Shown piece after piece: positions 4,145 to 12,459 of a stretch of DNA of 64,000 nt (its first letter is position 1; each line of letters begins with the position of its first letter). This stretch comes from Spirosomataceae bacterium (GTDB lineage: Bacteria > Bacteroidota > Bacteroidia > Cytophagales > Spirosomataceae). The notes beneath the pieces are model-generated. The model was given only the letters and a program-made list of their open reading frames with translations, was not told the DNA's origin and made no database searches. Both the position numbers and the translations under genes were made by a program. The DNA lies in the NCBI GenBank assembly GCA_041392315.1, contig JAWKMH010000006.1, positions 262,537 to 326,536 of the forward strand, in the 5' to 3' direction.

Positions 4145-7100
4145 ATGAAACGGCTTTATCTATATATTTTCTTCATTGTTTTTATTGCAGGTACAGGAGC
4201 TAATCTAAAAGCGCAGGTTATCAAACTTTCTGACGAACCAGCTCAATTTATAGCAGATGTTCAAAAAATGATGGCTATGAGTGGTAACCCCAATTATGTA
4301 AAGGCAGCTAAAAACCTTGAAACATTGTGGTTAGATAGTCGTTTGACGCAAAACCACCAAAAAAGTATCATTGCTCTGAGCCGCCAAATGGTGGCCAAGG
4401 GCTATAAACCCAATACACCTCACTTTGAGCAATTTTTTAATGGAACCTATGCCTCTTTCAATGGTGCATATGCCAACCCCAATGAAGTAGATGGCTACCT
4501 CACTACTGCTACCCAAATGATTGAGAAATATGATGCTAAAAGTGCTTTAAAATATTTTGAAACAGCCCGAAGTTTATTTGAAAACCGCCTACTTTATACT
4601 TCTAACTTCAATCGTTTATTTGCCCTTGAGGGGTCTTTTAGTTTCCAATTTAAGGAAGCTGCTCCTGAGCAAGCAAAAACCGGTGAAGCTGCCAAAGCAA
4701 CTACGGCTAACGATGGCTGGGACAATGTAGTCGCCGACTCCACGGGTGCATTATCTGCCAGTTTTGTTTATGAGAAAAAACCACTTCCCAACATTTTAGG
4801 TGCAGTCATCGCGTTCAAACATGTCAATTTGGTGATAGTGACAGCCAATGACTCCGTCTCTCTTGCCCAGACCAGCGGCCAATTAGCCATCAAAGAGGGT
4901 GTCTGGGTTGGGACAGGTGGAAAGGTGACCTGGGAAACCATAGGCAATCCAGACATATTTGTCTCCCTGAGTGCTTATAGTTTTAATGTAGGGCTTCCTA
5001 AAATTACGGCAGATGATGCTAAACTTAACTATACTACCAAATTGACTCAACCTGTAGAGGGTGTTTTCGAGTATGAAAGCAAAAGGCGTAACAAAGGGCA
5101 ATTATCGCCCTATCCGCGCTTTATTTCTTACCGAAACGATGCCCAATTAAAGGGACTGAGTAAAAATATACAATACAAAGGCGGACTCTCACTCGTTGGT
5201 TTGAAGCTTACTGGCAGCTCATTGAGCCAAGAACCCGCTACTATTACCGTAAGTTATAAAAATAAAATTGCTTTTAAGTCCACCAGCCGTCGTTTTGAAC
5301 TTACCGACTCCCTCATCACGGCGCCTTTGGCTACTTTTACTACTTATTTGGGTACTGATTCACTTTATCATCCAGGTATCAGACTTTCTTACAGCGATAC
5401 AGACGGGCTACTTAAAACCCAGAGTGCCGACCGTACAGGCTACCAATATACGCCATACGCTGACTCCTACCACAAAATGTATATTGATGCCGAAATGTTG
5501 CGTTGGAGTTTTCCTAAAAACGAAATTGAGTTTTTGAGAATCGCAGGCAAAACAGAAGTACCTATTCGTTTTGAATCGTTTAACTTTTACAAACAAGAAC
5601 GCTTTCGAGCCATGAGCGAGCAGTATGGTTTTCACCCGCTATTGATGGCTGCCAATTATATCACCAAACAAAAAACACCCACTTTTGCCCCCGCAGACTT
5701 AGCAACGCTCTACAAACGCGATCTAAATGCGTTAAGTACGGCGTTTGCGCAATTAGATTATGATGGATACGTAACTATTGATTCTAAAAATGGGCTATAT
5801 AGGCTTACTGACAAAGGTATTTTGTATGTATTGGCCAACAACAAACAAGCTGATTTTGATAACTTTCGTGTCTCCTCGCTTTATGCTGCCAATACCACCA
5901 CTGCCAACGCCAGTATTGATCTCAAAGATAACGTAATGACCATCCGTGGGGTAGAAAAGTTTACCATTAGCGATTCATTAAAAATCTTTGCCACGCCTTC
6001 TGACAAACAAATCAAGGTAATGAAAAACCGTGATTTCTCCATGAATGGTTTGCTCACTTCAGCCAATTTTAGGTTTAATGGCCGTGATTTAATATTCAAT
6101 TATGATAAGTTTTTTGTGGACTTGACCAAAATTGACAACATCACTTTTATTCCAAAAGCAGCTTATGATAAGGGCAGCACTACCGAAGTAGGGGGTGATA
6201 TTGTCTATGAAAAATCAGGGCGTATATATCTCAACGACCCCACCAACAAATCTGGAGCGAAGAAAAATTCAGTATTTCCACGCCTCAATGTCCCTGAGGG
6301 TATGACGGTCTATTTTGACCAAGCAGACCGTGGAAATCTAACTTATGATCGAAAAGTATTCTTTAAAATTCCAACACTTGATTACGATAGCCTTGGAACT
6401 CAAGACATTGTTTTTATCGGCACCTTCAATTCTAACGGTATCATGCCTCCTTTTCAAGCAGAGCTCCGCTCCATGCCCGATAACTCACTTGGTTTCAAAT
6501 ACAAAGCTCCCGCTACGGGGTTTAAAGTATATGGAACCAATGCCACGGTAAAGTTTACAAAAGAACTAACAATGGACAAACAAGGGCTGCGCTCCGAAGG
6601 CGAGATTACCCATTTGAGTGCTCGTATCCCCACACAAGCTATGCTGTTTATGTCTGATTCACTCATTGCCAGTGGTGCAGAAGCCGAAATCAAAGAAGCG
6701 ACCATCGGAAAAGCTTATTTCCCCAAAGTGGAATTGAGAAATTTTACAATGCGATGGATGCCAAAAGCGGATAGTATGTCGTTGACTACAAAGGCAAATG
6801 CTTTTAATTTTTATAATGGTACTACAAAGCTGGATGGGCGTATTGTATTGCGTTCTTCAGGCTTATACGGCAAAGGGTTTTTACGCCGCGATGATTCCGA
6901 ATTGACCTCACAAGACATTAAATTCAACAAAGAAGGCTTTTTGGCAGGCGATGCCCAATATAAAATTATATCGGCTACCAATGCCACTCGCCCAGTGCTT
7001 TTAGGAAAAAATGTGGATGTTGATTTTAACTTAGTAAAAGGATTGGTAGGTATTTCAACCAACAAAACTTCGTTGGAAAATACCTCCATGGAGTTTCCCT

Positions 7101-9118
7101 TTACCGCCTACCGTACTTCTATTAATCGTGCACAATGGAACATCAACGCCAAGACCATTGCTATGAAAGGCGATGTGAGCACTTCAACTTTCACGGCAAC
7201 AGCCTCTGAACAGGAAGGATTAACCTTTAATGGGTCTTCTGCTTTATACGAAATAGAAAAGATGACGCTCAACATCGGAGGCGTACCTTTTATCAAAACA
7301 GCAGATGCTAAAGTAATTCCCGATAAAGGATTAGTAACTGTCCAACGCAACGGAGACTTACCGCTTTTTAAGAATGCAAGATTAATATTAGATACCCTCA
7401 ACGAATACCACCGCCTTAAAAATGGCAATATTCAGATTGTATCCAGAACAAAGTTTACAGGCGACGCTACCTATCTTTATGCTACTGTGACGAATGATAC
7501 GATCCCTGTCAAAATGGGTAATTTCAACTTGAGAGAAAGCAACCTCACTGCTTCAACAAGCAGCCGTTTGGTCCAATCCAAAACAAAATCGGCTTATACA
7601 GTAGCCCGTGCTGAAATCGTTGAGTTAGATAATTTTGTAGTAGGGCCACGTCTCCAATACAAAGGCTCAATGACTATGCTGGCTCCCGAACCTAACCTTC
7701 AGTTCGACGGCTATATCAAACCTATTATCAAACAACGTCGCGATTTAATGGCTTCTTGGATTCCATTCAAAGAGACCCCTACCAAGGACGTAGCACTGAA
7801 AGTTACGCCAACCCTTAAAAATGAGTCTGATTTACCGATTTCTGTAGGCTTACATTATCGTTCAGCTACCGCCGACGGTCTATATGCCACCTTCTTATCA
7901 CCTAAAGAAGGGCGCAACGACCAAGCTATTTTTGAGGTCAGTGGGTTACTACGTTTTGATGACAAAAAAAAGGTTTTCAGTATCGCACCCGAAGTCAAAA
8001 CCCCAGATGAGCTTGTTGACGAAGCAAATTCCTTTACTTTCAATGATGCCAAAGGAACGATTGATTACCAAGGGAAACTTAATTTTATCTATGAGCAAGA
8101 GGCCAAACCAGGGGAAGAATTATTTTTAGCAGCGGGGTCGGTCCGTACCAATCTAGACAGTAGCACTTATCAGTTTAATAGTTTGTTGTCCTTTAATTTC
8201 CCAGCCAATAAGGAAATTATTACCAAAGCTGCTGAAAATATTGTACAAACCAATTTGGATGAACAAAACAGTGATGCCGCCGAGCCTAATTTTGAAAGAT
8301 TAGGCAATAAACTTACCGCACTCATTGGCCGCAAAGCTACCGATGGTTACATTGCTCGCACAGCCGCAGCTTATAAACCTCTCTTTGATGCTTCACCTAA
8401 GTTTAATGCAACGCTCGTGTTATCAAATGTAAATTTGCGCTGGTCGCCTGTACAAAATGCGTTTTATAGTGTGGGGAAGATTGGCGTATCTAATTTGGGT
8501 AATACCGACATCAATGCCGAAATGGACGGAATGATTGAGATTAGAAAAAATACACGTGGCGACGAAATCAGTATTTACCTCGAATCTTCAGAAAGTGTGT
8601 GGTACTATTTTGATTGGCAACAGGGTAAACTGGCAATAGTATCATCAGAGCAAGAAACCAACGATTTGATAGCTGTAAAATCAAGAGACAAAAAAGAGTC
8701 AGCCATTTTATCCATTGGCTTTGAGGAGCGTGATTTGTTTATGGATAGATTCAATGCTATGTATCGACCCAAACCCAAAAAACCTGTCTTAGCCAAAGAT
8801 ACCAAAGCTCCAGCAAAAGGCACGCCAGTCAAAACACCCGCTGCAAGCCCAAGCAAAACAACCGCTAAAACAGCTCCCGTAGTAGCAGCTAAAGAAGTGG
8901 AGGAAGAAGAAATGACAGAGGAGGAAGATACCAAGGCAGCTGATAAAACAGCAAAAAATACGAAAACGACCAAAGACACCAAAATCGCGGTAAAGACCGA
9001 TGCTAAAAATGCAAAATCCGACACCTCCAAAACCAAACCTGGCGCGAAAGTAGCCCAAACACCCCCCAAAGCTCCTGTCAAGAAAAAAGCGAAAGAAGAA
9101 GAGAAAGAAGGGTTTTAG
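4145..9118 (+). CDS. Large exported hypothetical protein (1657 aa), beta-strand-rich, Lys/Ala/Thr-rich C-terminal tail
   Basis: Intact long ORF, Sec signal peptide (MKRLYLYIFF...LKA-Q), low-complexity charged tail; function not recognised. Confidence 0.8.
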   Translation: MKRLYLYIFFIVFIAGTGANLKAQVIKLSDEPAQFIADVQKMMAMSGNPNYVKAAKNLETLWLDSRLTQNHQKSIIALSRQMVAKGYKPNTPHFEQFFNGTYASFNGAYANPNEVDGYLTTATQMIEKYDAKSALKYFETARSLFENRLLYTSNFNRLFALEGSFSFQFKEAAPEQAKTGEAAKATTANDGWDNVVADSTGALSASFVYEKKPLPNILGAVIAFKHVNLVIVTANDSVSLAQTSGQLAIKEGVWVGTGGKVTWETIGNPDIFVSLSAYSFNVGLPKITADDAKLNYTTKLTQPVEGVFEYESKRRNKGQLSPYPRFISYRNDAQLKGLSKNIQYKGGLSLVGLKLTGSSLSQEPATITVSYKNKIAFKSTSRRFELTDSLITAPLATFTTYLGTDSLYHPGIRLSYSDTDGLLKTQSADRTGYQYTPYADSYHKMYIDAEMLRWSFPKNEIEFLRIAGKTEVPIRFESFNFYKQERFRAMSEQYGFHPLLMAANYITKQKTPTFAPADLATLYKRDLNALSTAFAQLDYDGYVTIDSKNGLYRLTDKGILYVLANNKQADFDNFRVSSLYAANTTTANASIDLKDNVMTIRGVEKFTISDSLKIFATPSDKQIKVMKNRDFSMNGLLTSANFRFNGRDLIFNYDKFFVDLTKIDNITFIPKAAYDKGSTTEVGGDIVYEKSGRIYLNDPTNKSGAKKNSVFPRLNVPEGMTVYFDQADRGNLTYDRKVFFKIPTLDYDSLGTQDIVFIGTFNSNGIMPPFQAELRSMPDNSLGFKYKAPATGFKVYGTNATVKFTKELTMDKQGLRSEGEITHLSARIPTQAMLFMSDSLIASGAEAEIKEATIGKAYFPKVELRNFTMRWMPKADSMSLTTKANAFNFYNGTTKLDGRIVLRSSGLYGKGFLRRDDSELTSQDIKFNKEGFLAGDAQYKIISATNATRPVLLGKNVDVDFNLVKGLVGISTNKTSLENTSMEFPFTAYRTSINRAQWNINAKTIAMKGDVSTSTFTATASEQEGLTFNGSSALYEIEKMTLNIGGVPFIKTADAKVIPDKGLVTVQRNGDLPLFKNARLILDTLNEYHRLKNGNIQIVSRTKFTGDATYLYATVTNDTIPVKMGNFNLRESNLTASTSSRLVQSKTKSAYTVARAEIVELDNFVVGPRLQYKGSMTMLAPEPNLQFDGYIKPIIKQRRDLMASWIPFKETPTKDVALKVTPTLKNESDLPISVGLHYRSATADGLYATFLSPKEGRNDQAIFEVSGLLRFDDKKKVFSIAPEVKTPDELVDEANSFTFNDAKGTIDYQGKLNFIYEQEAKPGEELFLAAGSVRTNLDSSTYQFNSLLSFNFPANKEIITKAAENIVQTNLDEQNSDAAEPNFERLGNKLTALIGRKATDGYIARTAAAYKPLFDASPKFNATLVLSNVNLRWSPVQNAFYSVGKIGVSNLGNTDINAEMDGMIEIRKNTRGDEISIYLESSESVWYYFDWQQGKLAIVSSEQETNDLIAVKSRDKKESAILSIGFEERDLFMDRFNAMYRPKPKKPVLAKDTKAPAKGTPVKTPAASPSKTTAKTAPVVAAKEVEEEEMTEEEDTKAADKTAKNTKTTKDTKIAVKTDAKNAKSDTSKTKPGAKVAQTPPKAPVKKKAKEEEKEGF

Positions 9119-9232: not shown

Positions 9233-11562
9233 CTATCGCCGTTTTTTACGTTCTTTTGTTTTAGTAATTTTTCGAGTTGTGTTGGCAGACATTTTGCTTT
9301 TTGTGGTTTTCAAGGAAATAACCCTTTGATTATCTTTATCTTCAGCCAAAACTAAATCCATGCTTCGGCGCGAAATATTGGTTTCTTTGACTTTCACTTT
9401 GACAGCATCGCCAAAGGTATAAAACCGCTTGCTGCGCTGTCCCACGAGTCGATAGTTCTCTTTATCTAATTCGTAATGGTCGTCTTTGAGGTCGTTCATA
9501 CGTACCAAGCCCTCAGAGGCTGTCTCTGTGATTTCTACAAACATTCCAAACTCTGTTACACCTGTGATTATGCCCTCCCACACGCGGTCGGGATCCATGG
9601 AAGCCATAAACTCTACTTGTTTGTATTTGATACTGGCGCGTTCGGCGTTGGTGGCCAATATTTCTCGAGCCGATGAGTGCTTGCAAGCGGGTTCGTATTC
9701 GGTACGCTCTGGCGAGGGTTTGCCATCCAAATAATGTTGCAACAATCGGTGGGCCATCATGTCAGGATAACGACGAATGGGCGAGGTGAAATGTGAATAT
9801 CTTCTTCTAAACGCCAACCCAAAATGCCTACATCTTCGGTGCTGTATCGGGCTTTCGACATCGTTCTGATGGCCAGTTGTTCAAGGCGTTTTGCTCGGGT
9901 TTTCCTTCAACGCCTCCATGAGGTAATTGAGCGATTGAGCAGCCACTTTTTCATTTTCTATTTTCATTTGGTAGCCCAAACGTCCTGCAAAAGCTGCAAA
10001 AATGCGCAACTTCTCCATATCGGGCTGCTCATGGATACGATAAATCATCACATTGGGATGTGTCTTATTTTCAGATTGGTGGTAAATAAACTCAAGGCGC
10101 GCTTGTGTAGGCATAAACTCTTCTATCAGTTTATGAGCATCTTTACGGACTTTGGTATAAAGCCCCAAGGGTTTACCGTTTTCGTCAAGCCTAAACTTCA
10201 CTTCTGTTGTTTCAAAATTAATAGCTCCCTTGGCAAATCTTTCTGCCCGAAGTTTGTGCGCAAGTTCATTTAATAAAGTAAGTACACCGCTCATTTCTTG
10301 GGTGTCAGGATTTTCTGATGACCTCTTGCGCTTCTTCATAACTAAATCTCTTATCAGAATGAATGACCGTGCGCCCAAACCACTCGCTCACTATTTTAGC
10401 TTCAGCATTGAGTTCAAAAACCGCCGAGAAAGTTAGCTTATCTTCATTGGGGCGGAGAGAACAGAGGTTGTTAGAGAGTTTTCGGGTAGCATAGGCACAG
10501 TTCTATCCACCTCTAAATAGACTGATGTATGCGGGCGTAGGCTTCGTTCGAGTGCTGTTCCTGGACGTACATAGTGCGTTACATCGGCGATGTGTATTCC
10601 GATTTCATAATGACCATTATCGAGGGTTTTGACCGAAAGCGCGTCGTCAAAATCTTTGGCATCGACGGGATCAATGGTAAAAGTCAGTATGTCGCGCATA
10701 TCGCGGCGGCGTGCTATTTCCTCGGCGGTAATGTCAGTGGAAATGGCGTTAGCCTCGATTTCTATTTCTTCGGGAAATTTGTATGTAAGCCAAATTCGGC
10801 CAAAATGGCGTGCATTTCAGTTCGCGATGCGTGTAGATTTTTTCCCAATACGCCTCTACTACCTCGCCTTCCATGCGTCGGGAGCGTGTTGGAGTATTGT
10901 GTAAGATACCACTGGCAATGACTTTATCTCCTTCTTGGGCATTTTTTAAGTTTAGCTTCAGGTATAAACAACTCATCGTAAATACAGCGGTTGTCAATGG
11001 CTACGGTACCGTGGCCGGAGCCACCAGTTCAATCTCACCCACAAACTCCGTGCGACCACGCTCAATGATTTCTTCTGCCGCGCCCCTCACGGCGGCGGCC
11101 TGCCCGAAAATCGCTAAAAAGTGTAATTCGGACGGTGTCGCCATCTATAGCCCCTCGCAAATCGTCGGAGTCTATCCACACATCGGTATTTTCGGCTTTA
11201 TGGTTGGTTGGTGTATTGTCGACACCACAAAGGCATAGTTTTTATTGACATGCTCTACTTTACCGATGAGTACGTTGGCATTAGCACTGACATTGGCGAC
11301 ATACAAGCCCTCATCGGTGCGCTTTACACGGTTTTCTTCTACCAGTTCCTCCAAAATACCATTGAGTAGTTGGCGAAGTTTAGAATCTTCCGGCATCGAA
11401 ATGCTCGTAGAGTTGAGACAGACCAAACGCCCGTGGCTCATTTATCTCAAAAAAGGCAGCGATTTCTGATTTGAACTCATCCACAAACGTTACAATTTGT
11501 TTTTGCGGACGGCTTTTCTTGGTCTTTGGTTTGGCTGTGCGGGTGTTTTGTTCCTTCTTCAT
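9233..11562 (-). CDS. rnr: Ribonuclease R (many apparent frameshifts)
   Basis: FTIDPVDAKDFDDALS, IGIHIADVTHYV, AHKLIEEFM, YSHFTSPIRRYPD and a C-terminal S1 domain with basic tail, spread over several frames. Confidence 0.92.
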
Positions 11563-11677
11563 CCTATTTAATACTTCTACCCAAAGAAACCACTTTTTCG
11601 GTAAAATCATTGCATGAGGGTGATTTTTGGGAGATTGATGAAAAATGGGTTTTAAATCCTAATGGCTTGCTGTCCAC

Positions 11678-11715
11678 AAAAAAATCGAGCGAAGGGCATT
11701 CACTACGCTCGATTT
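11678..11715 (-). terminator. Rho-independent terminator downstream of the two peptide genes
   Basis: Stem aaatcgagcg / cgctcgattt running into a T-tract on the minus strand (A7 at 11678-11684 on plus). Confidence 0.65.
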
Positions 11716-11738
11716 AACTCGAAGTCCGTGAAGCGATA

Positions 11739-11865
11739 TTAGCAGTTTTTGGAAGCCGCTTTCTCGTAGTAAATTACTCCTCCTACAATCTGTTGTGTTT
11801 GCTTGGCTGAAAAGGCTTACGATTTTATCTGTCTTGAGATTGATTCTGTTGATTGTCTTTTTCAT
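11739..11865 (-). CDS. Double-glycine leader peptide precursor 2 (41 aa after removing one T from a CTTTTC run): MKKTINRINLKTDKIVSLSAKQTQQIVGG-VIYYEKAASKNC
   Basis: Leader is paralogous to the upstream precursor; a single-base correction restores SLS..Q.IVGG and a stop just before the terminator. Confidence 0.7.
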
Positions 11866-11921
11866 GACTTTGTGTTGTTAAAAAATGGTTGATTGGTTTT
11901 GACTTGTTAAATTGTTTTGTT

Positions 11922-12068
11922 TTAGTCGTTGCACCAACAGGTATTGTCGGCTCCACATGTTTTGCCAGTCCGAGGTTTTACACCGCCCATAATACCTTGT
12001 GCATTTTCTTTCGAAAGGCTTAAGATTTTGTCTGTCTTCAAAGTGATTTTGCTAATTGTCTTTTTCAT
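11922..12068 (-). CDS. Double-glycine leader peptide precursor 1 (48 aa): MKKTISKITLKTDKILSLSKENAQGIMGG-VKPRTGKTCGADNTCWCND
   Basis: Lys-rich leader ending in IMGG, core with 3 Thr and 3 Cys, A-rich 5' leader; resembles Bacteroidota lanthipeptide/GG-type precursors. Confidence 0.8.
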   Translation of the reverse strand: MKKTISKITLKTDKILSLSKENAQGIMGGVKPRTGKTCGADNTCWCND

Positions 12069-12350
12069 GATAGTTATTTGTTTTGATTGTTTTTTGTTTA
12101 ATACTTTGTTTTCGTCGTGATTGACGATACAAAGGTGTAGCATACGACAACCTTAATGAAAAATAATCTCTCAAACAGGGGAAAATTGAAGTTAAATTGT
12201 GGCTTTTATAGATTGAAGTGAAAGAATAGCTACCGATAACATCATTGAGTAGCACAAATTATATGTGATAGTTGGAGAAAAGGGAAATAGCTAATTGATA
12301 TACACTAAATTGTCATAAGTACTTGTGTATATTTAGTTTGCATTATTCTG

Positions 12351-12424
12351 TTTGACCCCGTCGGGGTCAGATGTTTATAGAAGCCAATAACCTGCTACAA
12401 ATAAACGACCCCGACGGGGTCGAA
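12351..12424. repeat. REP/BIME-like doublet of GACCCCG(T/A)CGGGGTC palindromes
   Basis: gaccccgtcggggtc (12354-12368) and gaccccgacggggtc (12407-12421) are each hairpins and are inverted copies of each other. Confidence 0.75.
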
Positions 12425-12459
12425 TAATGCAATGTATTTTTGTTTTGGTACTTAAGTAA

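Follow-up and report, generated by a model that had tools for sequence, protein, structure and literature searches.

Analysis of a 64,000-nucleotide stretch of DNA (the window; G000:C35:262537-326536) from a Spirosomataceae genome assembled as 38 contigs (5.7 Mb, with an estimated completeness of 80.7%) established that two small tandem genes on its minus strand are real, and indicated that they most probably form a co-transcribed pair of LanA genes, coding for class I lanthipeptide precursors with the Bacteroidota type of GG leader and standing as satellites to a lanthipeptide system that is scattered around the genome. The sequencing runs found to contain window DNA were wastewater metagenomes. 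The relevant features of the locus, all on the minus strand and given by window position, are as follows:

12121..12137 (-): promoter-like motif CACCTTTGTATCGTCAA, which precedes the gene 1 ATG by 53 nt and contains a Bacteroidota -7-like CAnnTTTG
12069..12120 (-): putative 5' untranslated region as read from the sequence, A/C-rich and without a Shine-Dalgarno element
11922..12068 (-): lanA gene 1, encoding a class I lanthipeptide precursor of 48 aa, by NF038158 match and translation
11866..11921 (-): intergenic spacer, A/C-rich, without a promoter motif of its own
11739..11865 (-): lanA gene 2, frame-shifted as assembled; the intact allele is 41 aa, a 29-aa GG leader plus the core VIYYEKAASKNC
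11810..11813 (-): T4 homopolymer with a one-base frameshift; contig C25 has T3 at this site
~11677..11715 (-): terminator-like hairpin with a 10-bp stem (AAAUCGAGCG/CGCUCGAUUU) followed by a U-tract, by folding

The first of the two genes agreed in coordinates, strand and 48-residue translation with the original prediction, the product consisting of a 29-residue leader that ends in GG (MKKTISKITLKTDKILSLSKENAQGIMGG) and a 19-residue core (VKPRTGKTCGADNTCWCND) with three threonines (Thr5, Thr8, Thr14) and three cysteines (Cys9, Cys15, Cys17). It was intact and identical in both of the contigs that carry it, C35 (the window) and C25. The leader matched NF038158, the NCBIfam class I lanthipeptide leader L1b (lant_leader_L1b), over all 28 profile positions and with a score of 46.9 bits, as against a curated cutoff of 27 bits that was passed by none of the control genomes; the GG leader that the two genes had been claimed to share is consequently real and no chance likeness. 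Pfam contained no family for either gene. When judged by the pattern of PCAT substrates (Gly-Gly, or GA or GS, at positions -2/-1, and hydrophobic residues at -4, -7, -12 and -15), the gene 1 leader presented G-1, G-2, I-4, A-7, L-12 and I-15, and the gene 2 leader displayed the same pattern.

Orthologues of gene 1 with 63-81% identity were present in other wastewater assemblies, and all three threonines and all three cysteines of the core, xKPxTGKTCGAxNTCWCND, were kept. Comparison of the gene 1 core with five orthologues gave pN values of 0.06-0.09 against pS values of 0.59-0.93, while the corresponding pN for the leader was ~0.19, so that the core, which is under purifying selection, is the more strongly constrained of the two parts. 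Conservation in relatives, which had been posed as a question, is thus present in the form both of gene 1 orthologues and of a wider core family in related MAGs, and the accompanying notion of a freely varying core fails for gene 1, the same pN and pS values having been recorded across those MAGs. Most of the orthologues read AG-A where gene 1 reads GG-V, for which reason the cleavage site is uncertain, the cut in the orthologues falling perhaps one residue later. These data also bear on the proposal that the two genes are chance small ORFs without a product, for which their shortness and a terminator fold no better than shuffled sequences might be cited: that proposal was effectively refuted by a profile score well in excess of a cutoff that no control genome passed, by a divergence between orthologues that is biased towards synonymous sites, and by an upstream motif conserved at a fixed distance (see below).

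The second gene starts, as predicted, at 11865 on the minus strand, but the 41-residue peptide attributed to it is not encoded by the window, since the run at 11810-11813 contains one T too many and the original prediction had dropped a base. This minus-strand run reads TTTT, and the extra T shifts the frame after Leu18, with the result that gene 2 as assembled reads ...KIVSLFSQANTTDCRR... and continues as a 68-residue ORF (11659-11865) through the terminator hairpin, while the remainder of the predicted peptide, SAKQTQQIVGGVIYYEKAASKNC, sits in the next frame of the window. An intact allele certainly exists in the same assembly, the 41-residue peptide MKKTINRINLKTDKIVSLSAKQTQQIVGGVIYYEKAASKNC being encoded exactly on contig C25 (L002:889-1014), which reads TTT and whose alignment with C35 shows a gap at window position 11810. 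This allele scored 30.1 bits with NF038158, whereas gene 2 of the window, owing to the frameshift, scored only 14-15 bits and fell below the cutoff of 27. A metagenome contig from a related strain ends CCTTTCG at the gene 2 site, and is therefore T3 and in frame; among the low-depth Logan wastewater-metagenome contigs, none from the same strain spans 11810-11813, those available stopping at 11811 or 11821. Given the intact allele in the same assembly, the frameshift seen in the window most probably reflects either an error in the consensus or variation between strains. The peptide itself was the sole match in the homologue search conducted with gene 2, with leader-only matches falling below the database E-value limit, which shows only that its core has no counterpart among the proteins searched. 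With no homologue found, and with a single serine and a single cysteine (Ser9, Cys12), this core counts against the reading of the pair as lanthipeptide precursors.

If the breaks in gene 2 and in the enzyme genes described below were real, the system would be dead, and the pair would then be the decaying relic of a lanthipeptide system in the course of being lost, with orphans no longer matured. We regard such a relic as unlikely. Gene 2, the LanB gene (three one-base indels) and the PCAT gene (at least three) are admittedly all broken in the assembly, the indels cluster in certain regions, with a 1657-residue ORF 3 kb away intact, and the presence of the leader family in only six of the 19 congeners implies that it is gained and lost readily. 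However, the housekeeping gene rnr has suffered more breaks still, yet it is intact in C25 and in an independent metagenome contig. This gene (RNase R; window 9340-11615, minus strand), which lies directly downstream of gene 2 and is single-copy in the genome, switches frame about eight times in the window but occupies one clean frame both in congeners and in C25, a 2338-bp contig that is 97.3% identical to window 10838-12454 and whose rnr product is 71% identical to congener RNase R; furthermore, an independent wastewater-metagenome contig agrees with the C25 state at 11390 and 11553. The same broken-versus-C25 pattern recurs in a gene on contig C12, which matches the other half of C25, the ORF of the larger contig being broken at homopolymers and that of C25 not, and long ORFs are depleted genome-wide, those of at least 250 residues covering 0.60 of this genome compared with 0.74 of a finished congener. 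When compared with intact relatives, the LanB gene (3) and the PCAT gene (at least 3) exhibited isolated one-nucleotide indels, mostly deletions, a pattern expected of consensus errors, which is what they and the indels of rnr most likely are. Gene 1 is intact and identical in two contigs and under purifying selection across species. The stretch from ~9300 to 11813 of the window is accordingly read as poor consensus or mixed strains, with rnr no obvious pseudogene. A single homopolymer indel can evidently hide a precursor gene in an assembly, and similar indels break lanB, the PCAT gene and rnr, which calls for caution.

Some further features of the surroundings may be recorded. The immediate neighbours of the locus are rnr and a gene of the fatty-acid-hydroxylase family, and the intact 1657-residue ORF referred to above (window 4145-9118, plus strand) belongs to no Pfam family. 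A ~140-bp repeat at window 12314-12454 contains the GC-rich hairpin CGACCCCGTCGGGGTCG, and copies with 86-98% identity were located on C12, C37 (three), C1 (three), C9, C33 (two) and C38, with weaker ones in congeners; from its sequence it resembles a MITE or REP element. It is precisely at this repeat that C25 passes from a C35-like to a C12-like sequence, and this contig must consequently be either a chimera or the product of a real rearrangement.

The promoter-like element CACCTTTG that had been reported near 12130 was found at 12130-12137, where it forms part of the longer motif CACCTTTGTATCGTCAA, which occurs once in the window as against 0.04 occurrences expected by chance. In the general form CAnnTTTGTATCRTCAA the motif was located 55-65 nt upstream of the ATG of the first gene at the C35, C37, C36 (twice), C33 and C13 loci, and a genome-wide search allowing no more than one mismatch returned 12 matches, seven of which precede lanA genes, compared with a single match for the reversed control. 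Of 25 loci from related MAGs and species, 13 had the same motif 55-94 nt upstream of the precursor genes. A promoter function for CAnnTTTGTATCRTCAA would be in keeping with this distribution, which also suggests that the scattered precursor loci may be expressed together from a common promoter-like motif; as a candidate shared element, it provides a handle for finding further members of the regulon. A sigma-70 scan gave two matches where 2.5 were expected, the sigma-70 model being uninformative for a Bacteroidota genome. The A/C-rich upstream composition of gene 1 was common to all of the paralogues and, as the spacer between the two genes is without a promoter motif of its own, genes 1 and 2 are probably co-transcribed. 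The prediction of one terminator downstream of gene 2 held in so far as a hairpin and U-tract are present at 11677-11715, but the fold energy (MFE -18 kcal/mol) did not go beyond that of shuffled sequences (z = -1.3), and alone is not significant; a simple terminator scan missed the hairpin because its loop exceeds 8 nt. One match to the lanA promoter-like motif (C12:160494-160510, minus strand; L086) precedes a lipoprotein gene of the beta-lactamase/serine-hydrolase family (PF00144), and is accompanied by the upstream element ACAAACAAGTTGGTATTGAAATC that is common to the C36 and C37 lanA loci; to judge from this arrangement, the lipoprotein may be a co-regulated accessory or immunity protein.

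By way of locating the enzymes that such precursors would require, the genome was searched with profiles PF04738, PF14028, PF05147, PF03412 and PF04055, and every match lay outside C35:262537-326536. The 64-kb window therefore contains, as had been stated, no LanB, LanC, C39 or radical SAM gene, and the whole of C35 contains no LanB, LanC or PCAT gene, so that linkage offers no support at this locus. Elsewhere in the genome, both the leader-based search for paralogues and the search for maturases and a transporter that had been proposed gave positive results, the former disclosing ~11 precursors with this leader, ~nine of them besides the window pair, and the latter a LanB and a PCAT on C36 and LanCs on C13 and C37. 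The loci are organised as follows:

C36: lanA-lanA-lanB-PCAT-HlyD-like, with LanB comprising Lant_dehydr_N and Lant_dehydr_C, and the PCAT comprising C39, a transmembrane domain and an ABC ATPase
C13: lanA-lanC-lanA-lanA, adjoining a two-component system
C37: lanA-lanC-lanA
C33: one orphan lanA
C35 (the window): two orphan lanA genes

The LanB gene (C36:41088-44102) represents the only LanB locus in the 81%-complete genome, and the two LanC genes lie at C13:36487-37596 and C37:44110-45153. The C39 domain (PF03412, 122.5 bits) of the transporter beside lanB keeps the catalytic Cys (DCGP) and His (HFVV), and the best NCBIfam match of this transporter was TIGR03796. Seven of the paralogues adjoin an enzyme gene and three of the ~11, namely the C33 gene and the window pair, have none nearby; the leaders of the orphans are 70-80% identical to those of the enzyme-adjacent paralogues, and the cores differ. 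As the genome is only ~81% complete, this inventory of enzymes may itself be incomplete. The original assignment of the pair to lanthipeptide-type RiPP precursors is upheld by an NF038158 leader whose paralogues adjoin LanB and a C39 PCAT, or LanC. Processing in trans is likewise well supported, if from sequence only, by the maturases on other contigs and the seven enzyme-adjacent paralogues, and the idea of a dispersed, prochlorosin-like library agrees with the finding of several precursors with one leader type away from a single LanB locus.

Two subtypes of leader were apparent among the paralogues, one containing ...LKTDKIV... (C35, C13, C33 and one of those on C37), and the other containing ...FSTEKIV... 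(both of those on C36 and one on C37) and having an extra conserved upstream element; the C37 LanC gene has as its neighbours one precursor of each subtype. A further GG-peptide system, unrelated to this one, occupies C1:384000-395500 (L087), and consists of an intact 754-residue C39 PCAT, a protein with a C39-like domain, thioredoxin/VKOR-like genes, and a small ORF that encodes MKKLLMQFSDNFLSRTQMKSVKGG followed by a Gly/Cys-rich core. This C1 PCAT was considered as the processing enzyme of the window pair and set aside, having a different GG peptide of its own and thiol-oxidoreductase neighbours, for which reason the C36 PCAT is the likelier partner.

The same arrangements bear on whether the products are modified at all. 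Both leaders, with GG and hydrophobic residues at -4, -12 and -15, would fit PCAT substrates exported without lanthionine, as class II-like bacteriocins or signals; the gene 2 core has little to modify, the unrelated PCAT system on C1 comes with its own GG peptide, and a two-component system adjoins the C13 locus. We nevertheless consider unmodified peptides very unlikely, given that the leader belongs to a lanthipeptide-specific family (NF038158), that it adjoins LanB or LanC in this genome and in relatives, and that the three threonines and three cysteines of core 1 are kept in orthologues.

Examination of related loci, which derive from Runella sp. and from Spirosomataceae MAGs obtained from bioreactors, demonstrated that some relatives of the CWCND core directly adjoin LanC (C13 of this genome, L066, L067) or LanB (L065), and that others (L058-L064) are orphans whose neighbourhoods are unrelated. 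Canonical lanA-lanC-lanB-lanT clusters with the same leader occurred in Larkinella, Spirosoma, Fibrisoma and Rhodocytophaga, and roughly half of the related precursor loci compared had no enzyme within 6 kb. The distribution of the leader family is patchy: among the other taxa searched, it was found in six of 19 species from the same genus, in one of five genera from the same family, and in none of 16 families from the same order. No synteny of the operon was detected in the congeners searched, whose rnr loci are without it. One further Spirosomataceae MAG, from another genus (G021), yielded 33 NF038158 leader matches, most of which lie in one ~20-kb array beside lanB and a PCAT gene (G021:C1:1968287-1988753; also L065, L068) that is, on its sequence, a very large class I precursor library.

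On the preferred reading of the pair as satellite class I precursors, the leader MKKxIxKIxLKTDKIVSLSxxxAQxIxGG would recruit the sole LanB, that on C36, which would dehydrate Ser and Thr residues of the core through glutamyl-tRNA. A stand-alone LanC, either that on C13 or that on C37, would then add Cys thiols to give (methyl)lanthionine rings, up to three of them in peptide 1 (Thr5-Cys9, Thr8-Cys15 and Thr14-Cys17 being guesses) and one in peptide 2 (a guessed Ser9-Cys12), after which the PCAT encoded beside lanB would remove the leader behind GG and carry the product out of the cell. Each of these steps is predicted from the protein families concerned. A broader and more tentative suggestion, to which we attach slightly less than even confidence, is that some Runella and other Spirosomataceae genomes might contain a class I equivalent of the prochlorosin arrangement, where a single LanB/PCAT locus, unlinked LanC genes and orphan lanA genes would be united as one regulon through the leader and the CAnnTTTGTATCRTCAA motif, and of which one product would be a species-spanning core (...TGKTCGAxNTCWCND) usually encoded by an orphan gene that moves between neighbourhoods.

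A system of this kind is already known, in this lineage as elsewhere, and it is the dispersed layout that is less ordinary. The Bacteroidetes class I LanAs reported by Walker et al. (2020; PMC7268733) have LxLxKx5L-type leaders that end in GG, and a C39 protease is encoded in the same cluster; the study also noted a likeness of these LanCs to LanM cyclase domains, which fits the NCBIfam matches recorded here. The present precursors share with the NF038158 precursors of that study a leader match, a GG end, a Cys/Thr-rich core and a genome with LanB, LanC and a C39 PCAT. By contrast, mining in that study (PMC7268733) took in seven genes on either side of LanC, and the window pair falls outside such a scope, with no enzyme within 64 kb; moreover, LanB/PCAT and LanC are mutually unlinked in this genome. 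The clustering of precursor and enzyme genes that is usual in the family, if not a defining property of it, is absent from the window pair. Mining that is limited to neighbourhoods is blind to such precursors, so that class I repertoires in Bacteroidota may be undercounted.

Closer to the source genome, RuiABC of Runella limosa yielded a seven-fold dehydrated, three-ring product in E. coli (PMC9993889, PMC9576775), and the related loci suggest that the source genome belongs to the same genus or to a close one. Like Ped15.1/15.2 of Pedobacter lusitanus and the pinensins of Chitinophaga, it exemplifies the action of class I LanB and LanC on Bacteroidota GG-leader LanAs, but all three differ from the window pair in that their precursors are clustered with the enzymes. 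Neither the CWCND family nor the VIYYEKAASKNC core appeared in the literature searched, and a literature search for orphan class I precursors returned nothing specific. The conserved core family with the CWCND terminus could be produced heterologously with the published Runella/Chryseobacterium pEVOL platform, and the locus as a whole offers a case in which trans-processing by a split class I system can be put to the test.

The transporter on C36, with its N-terminal C39 domain bearing Cys and His, its transmembrane domain and its ABC ATPase, has the make-up of PCATs (LahT, NHLP-type exporters), which act on GG substrates; it differs from them in being broken by one-nucleotide indels as assembled, and in that its cleavage of the present substrates is a prediction. 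A parallel for the layout is that of the prochlorosins (ProcA/ProcM) of marine picocyanobacteria, where a conserved leader is likewise joined to diverse cores, several of the precursors lie far from the synthetase, and the distant precursors presumably share one enzyme set. That system, however, is of class II, with a single LanM, Nif11-type leaders and up to ~30 precursors, whereas the one described here, from a member of the Cytophagales, is of class I, with a separate LanB and LanC and ~11 precursors.
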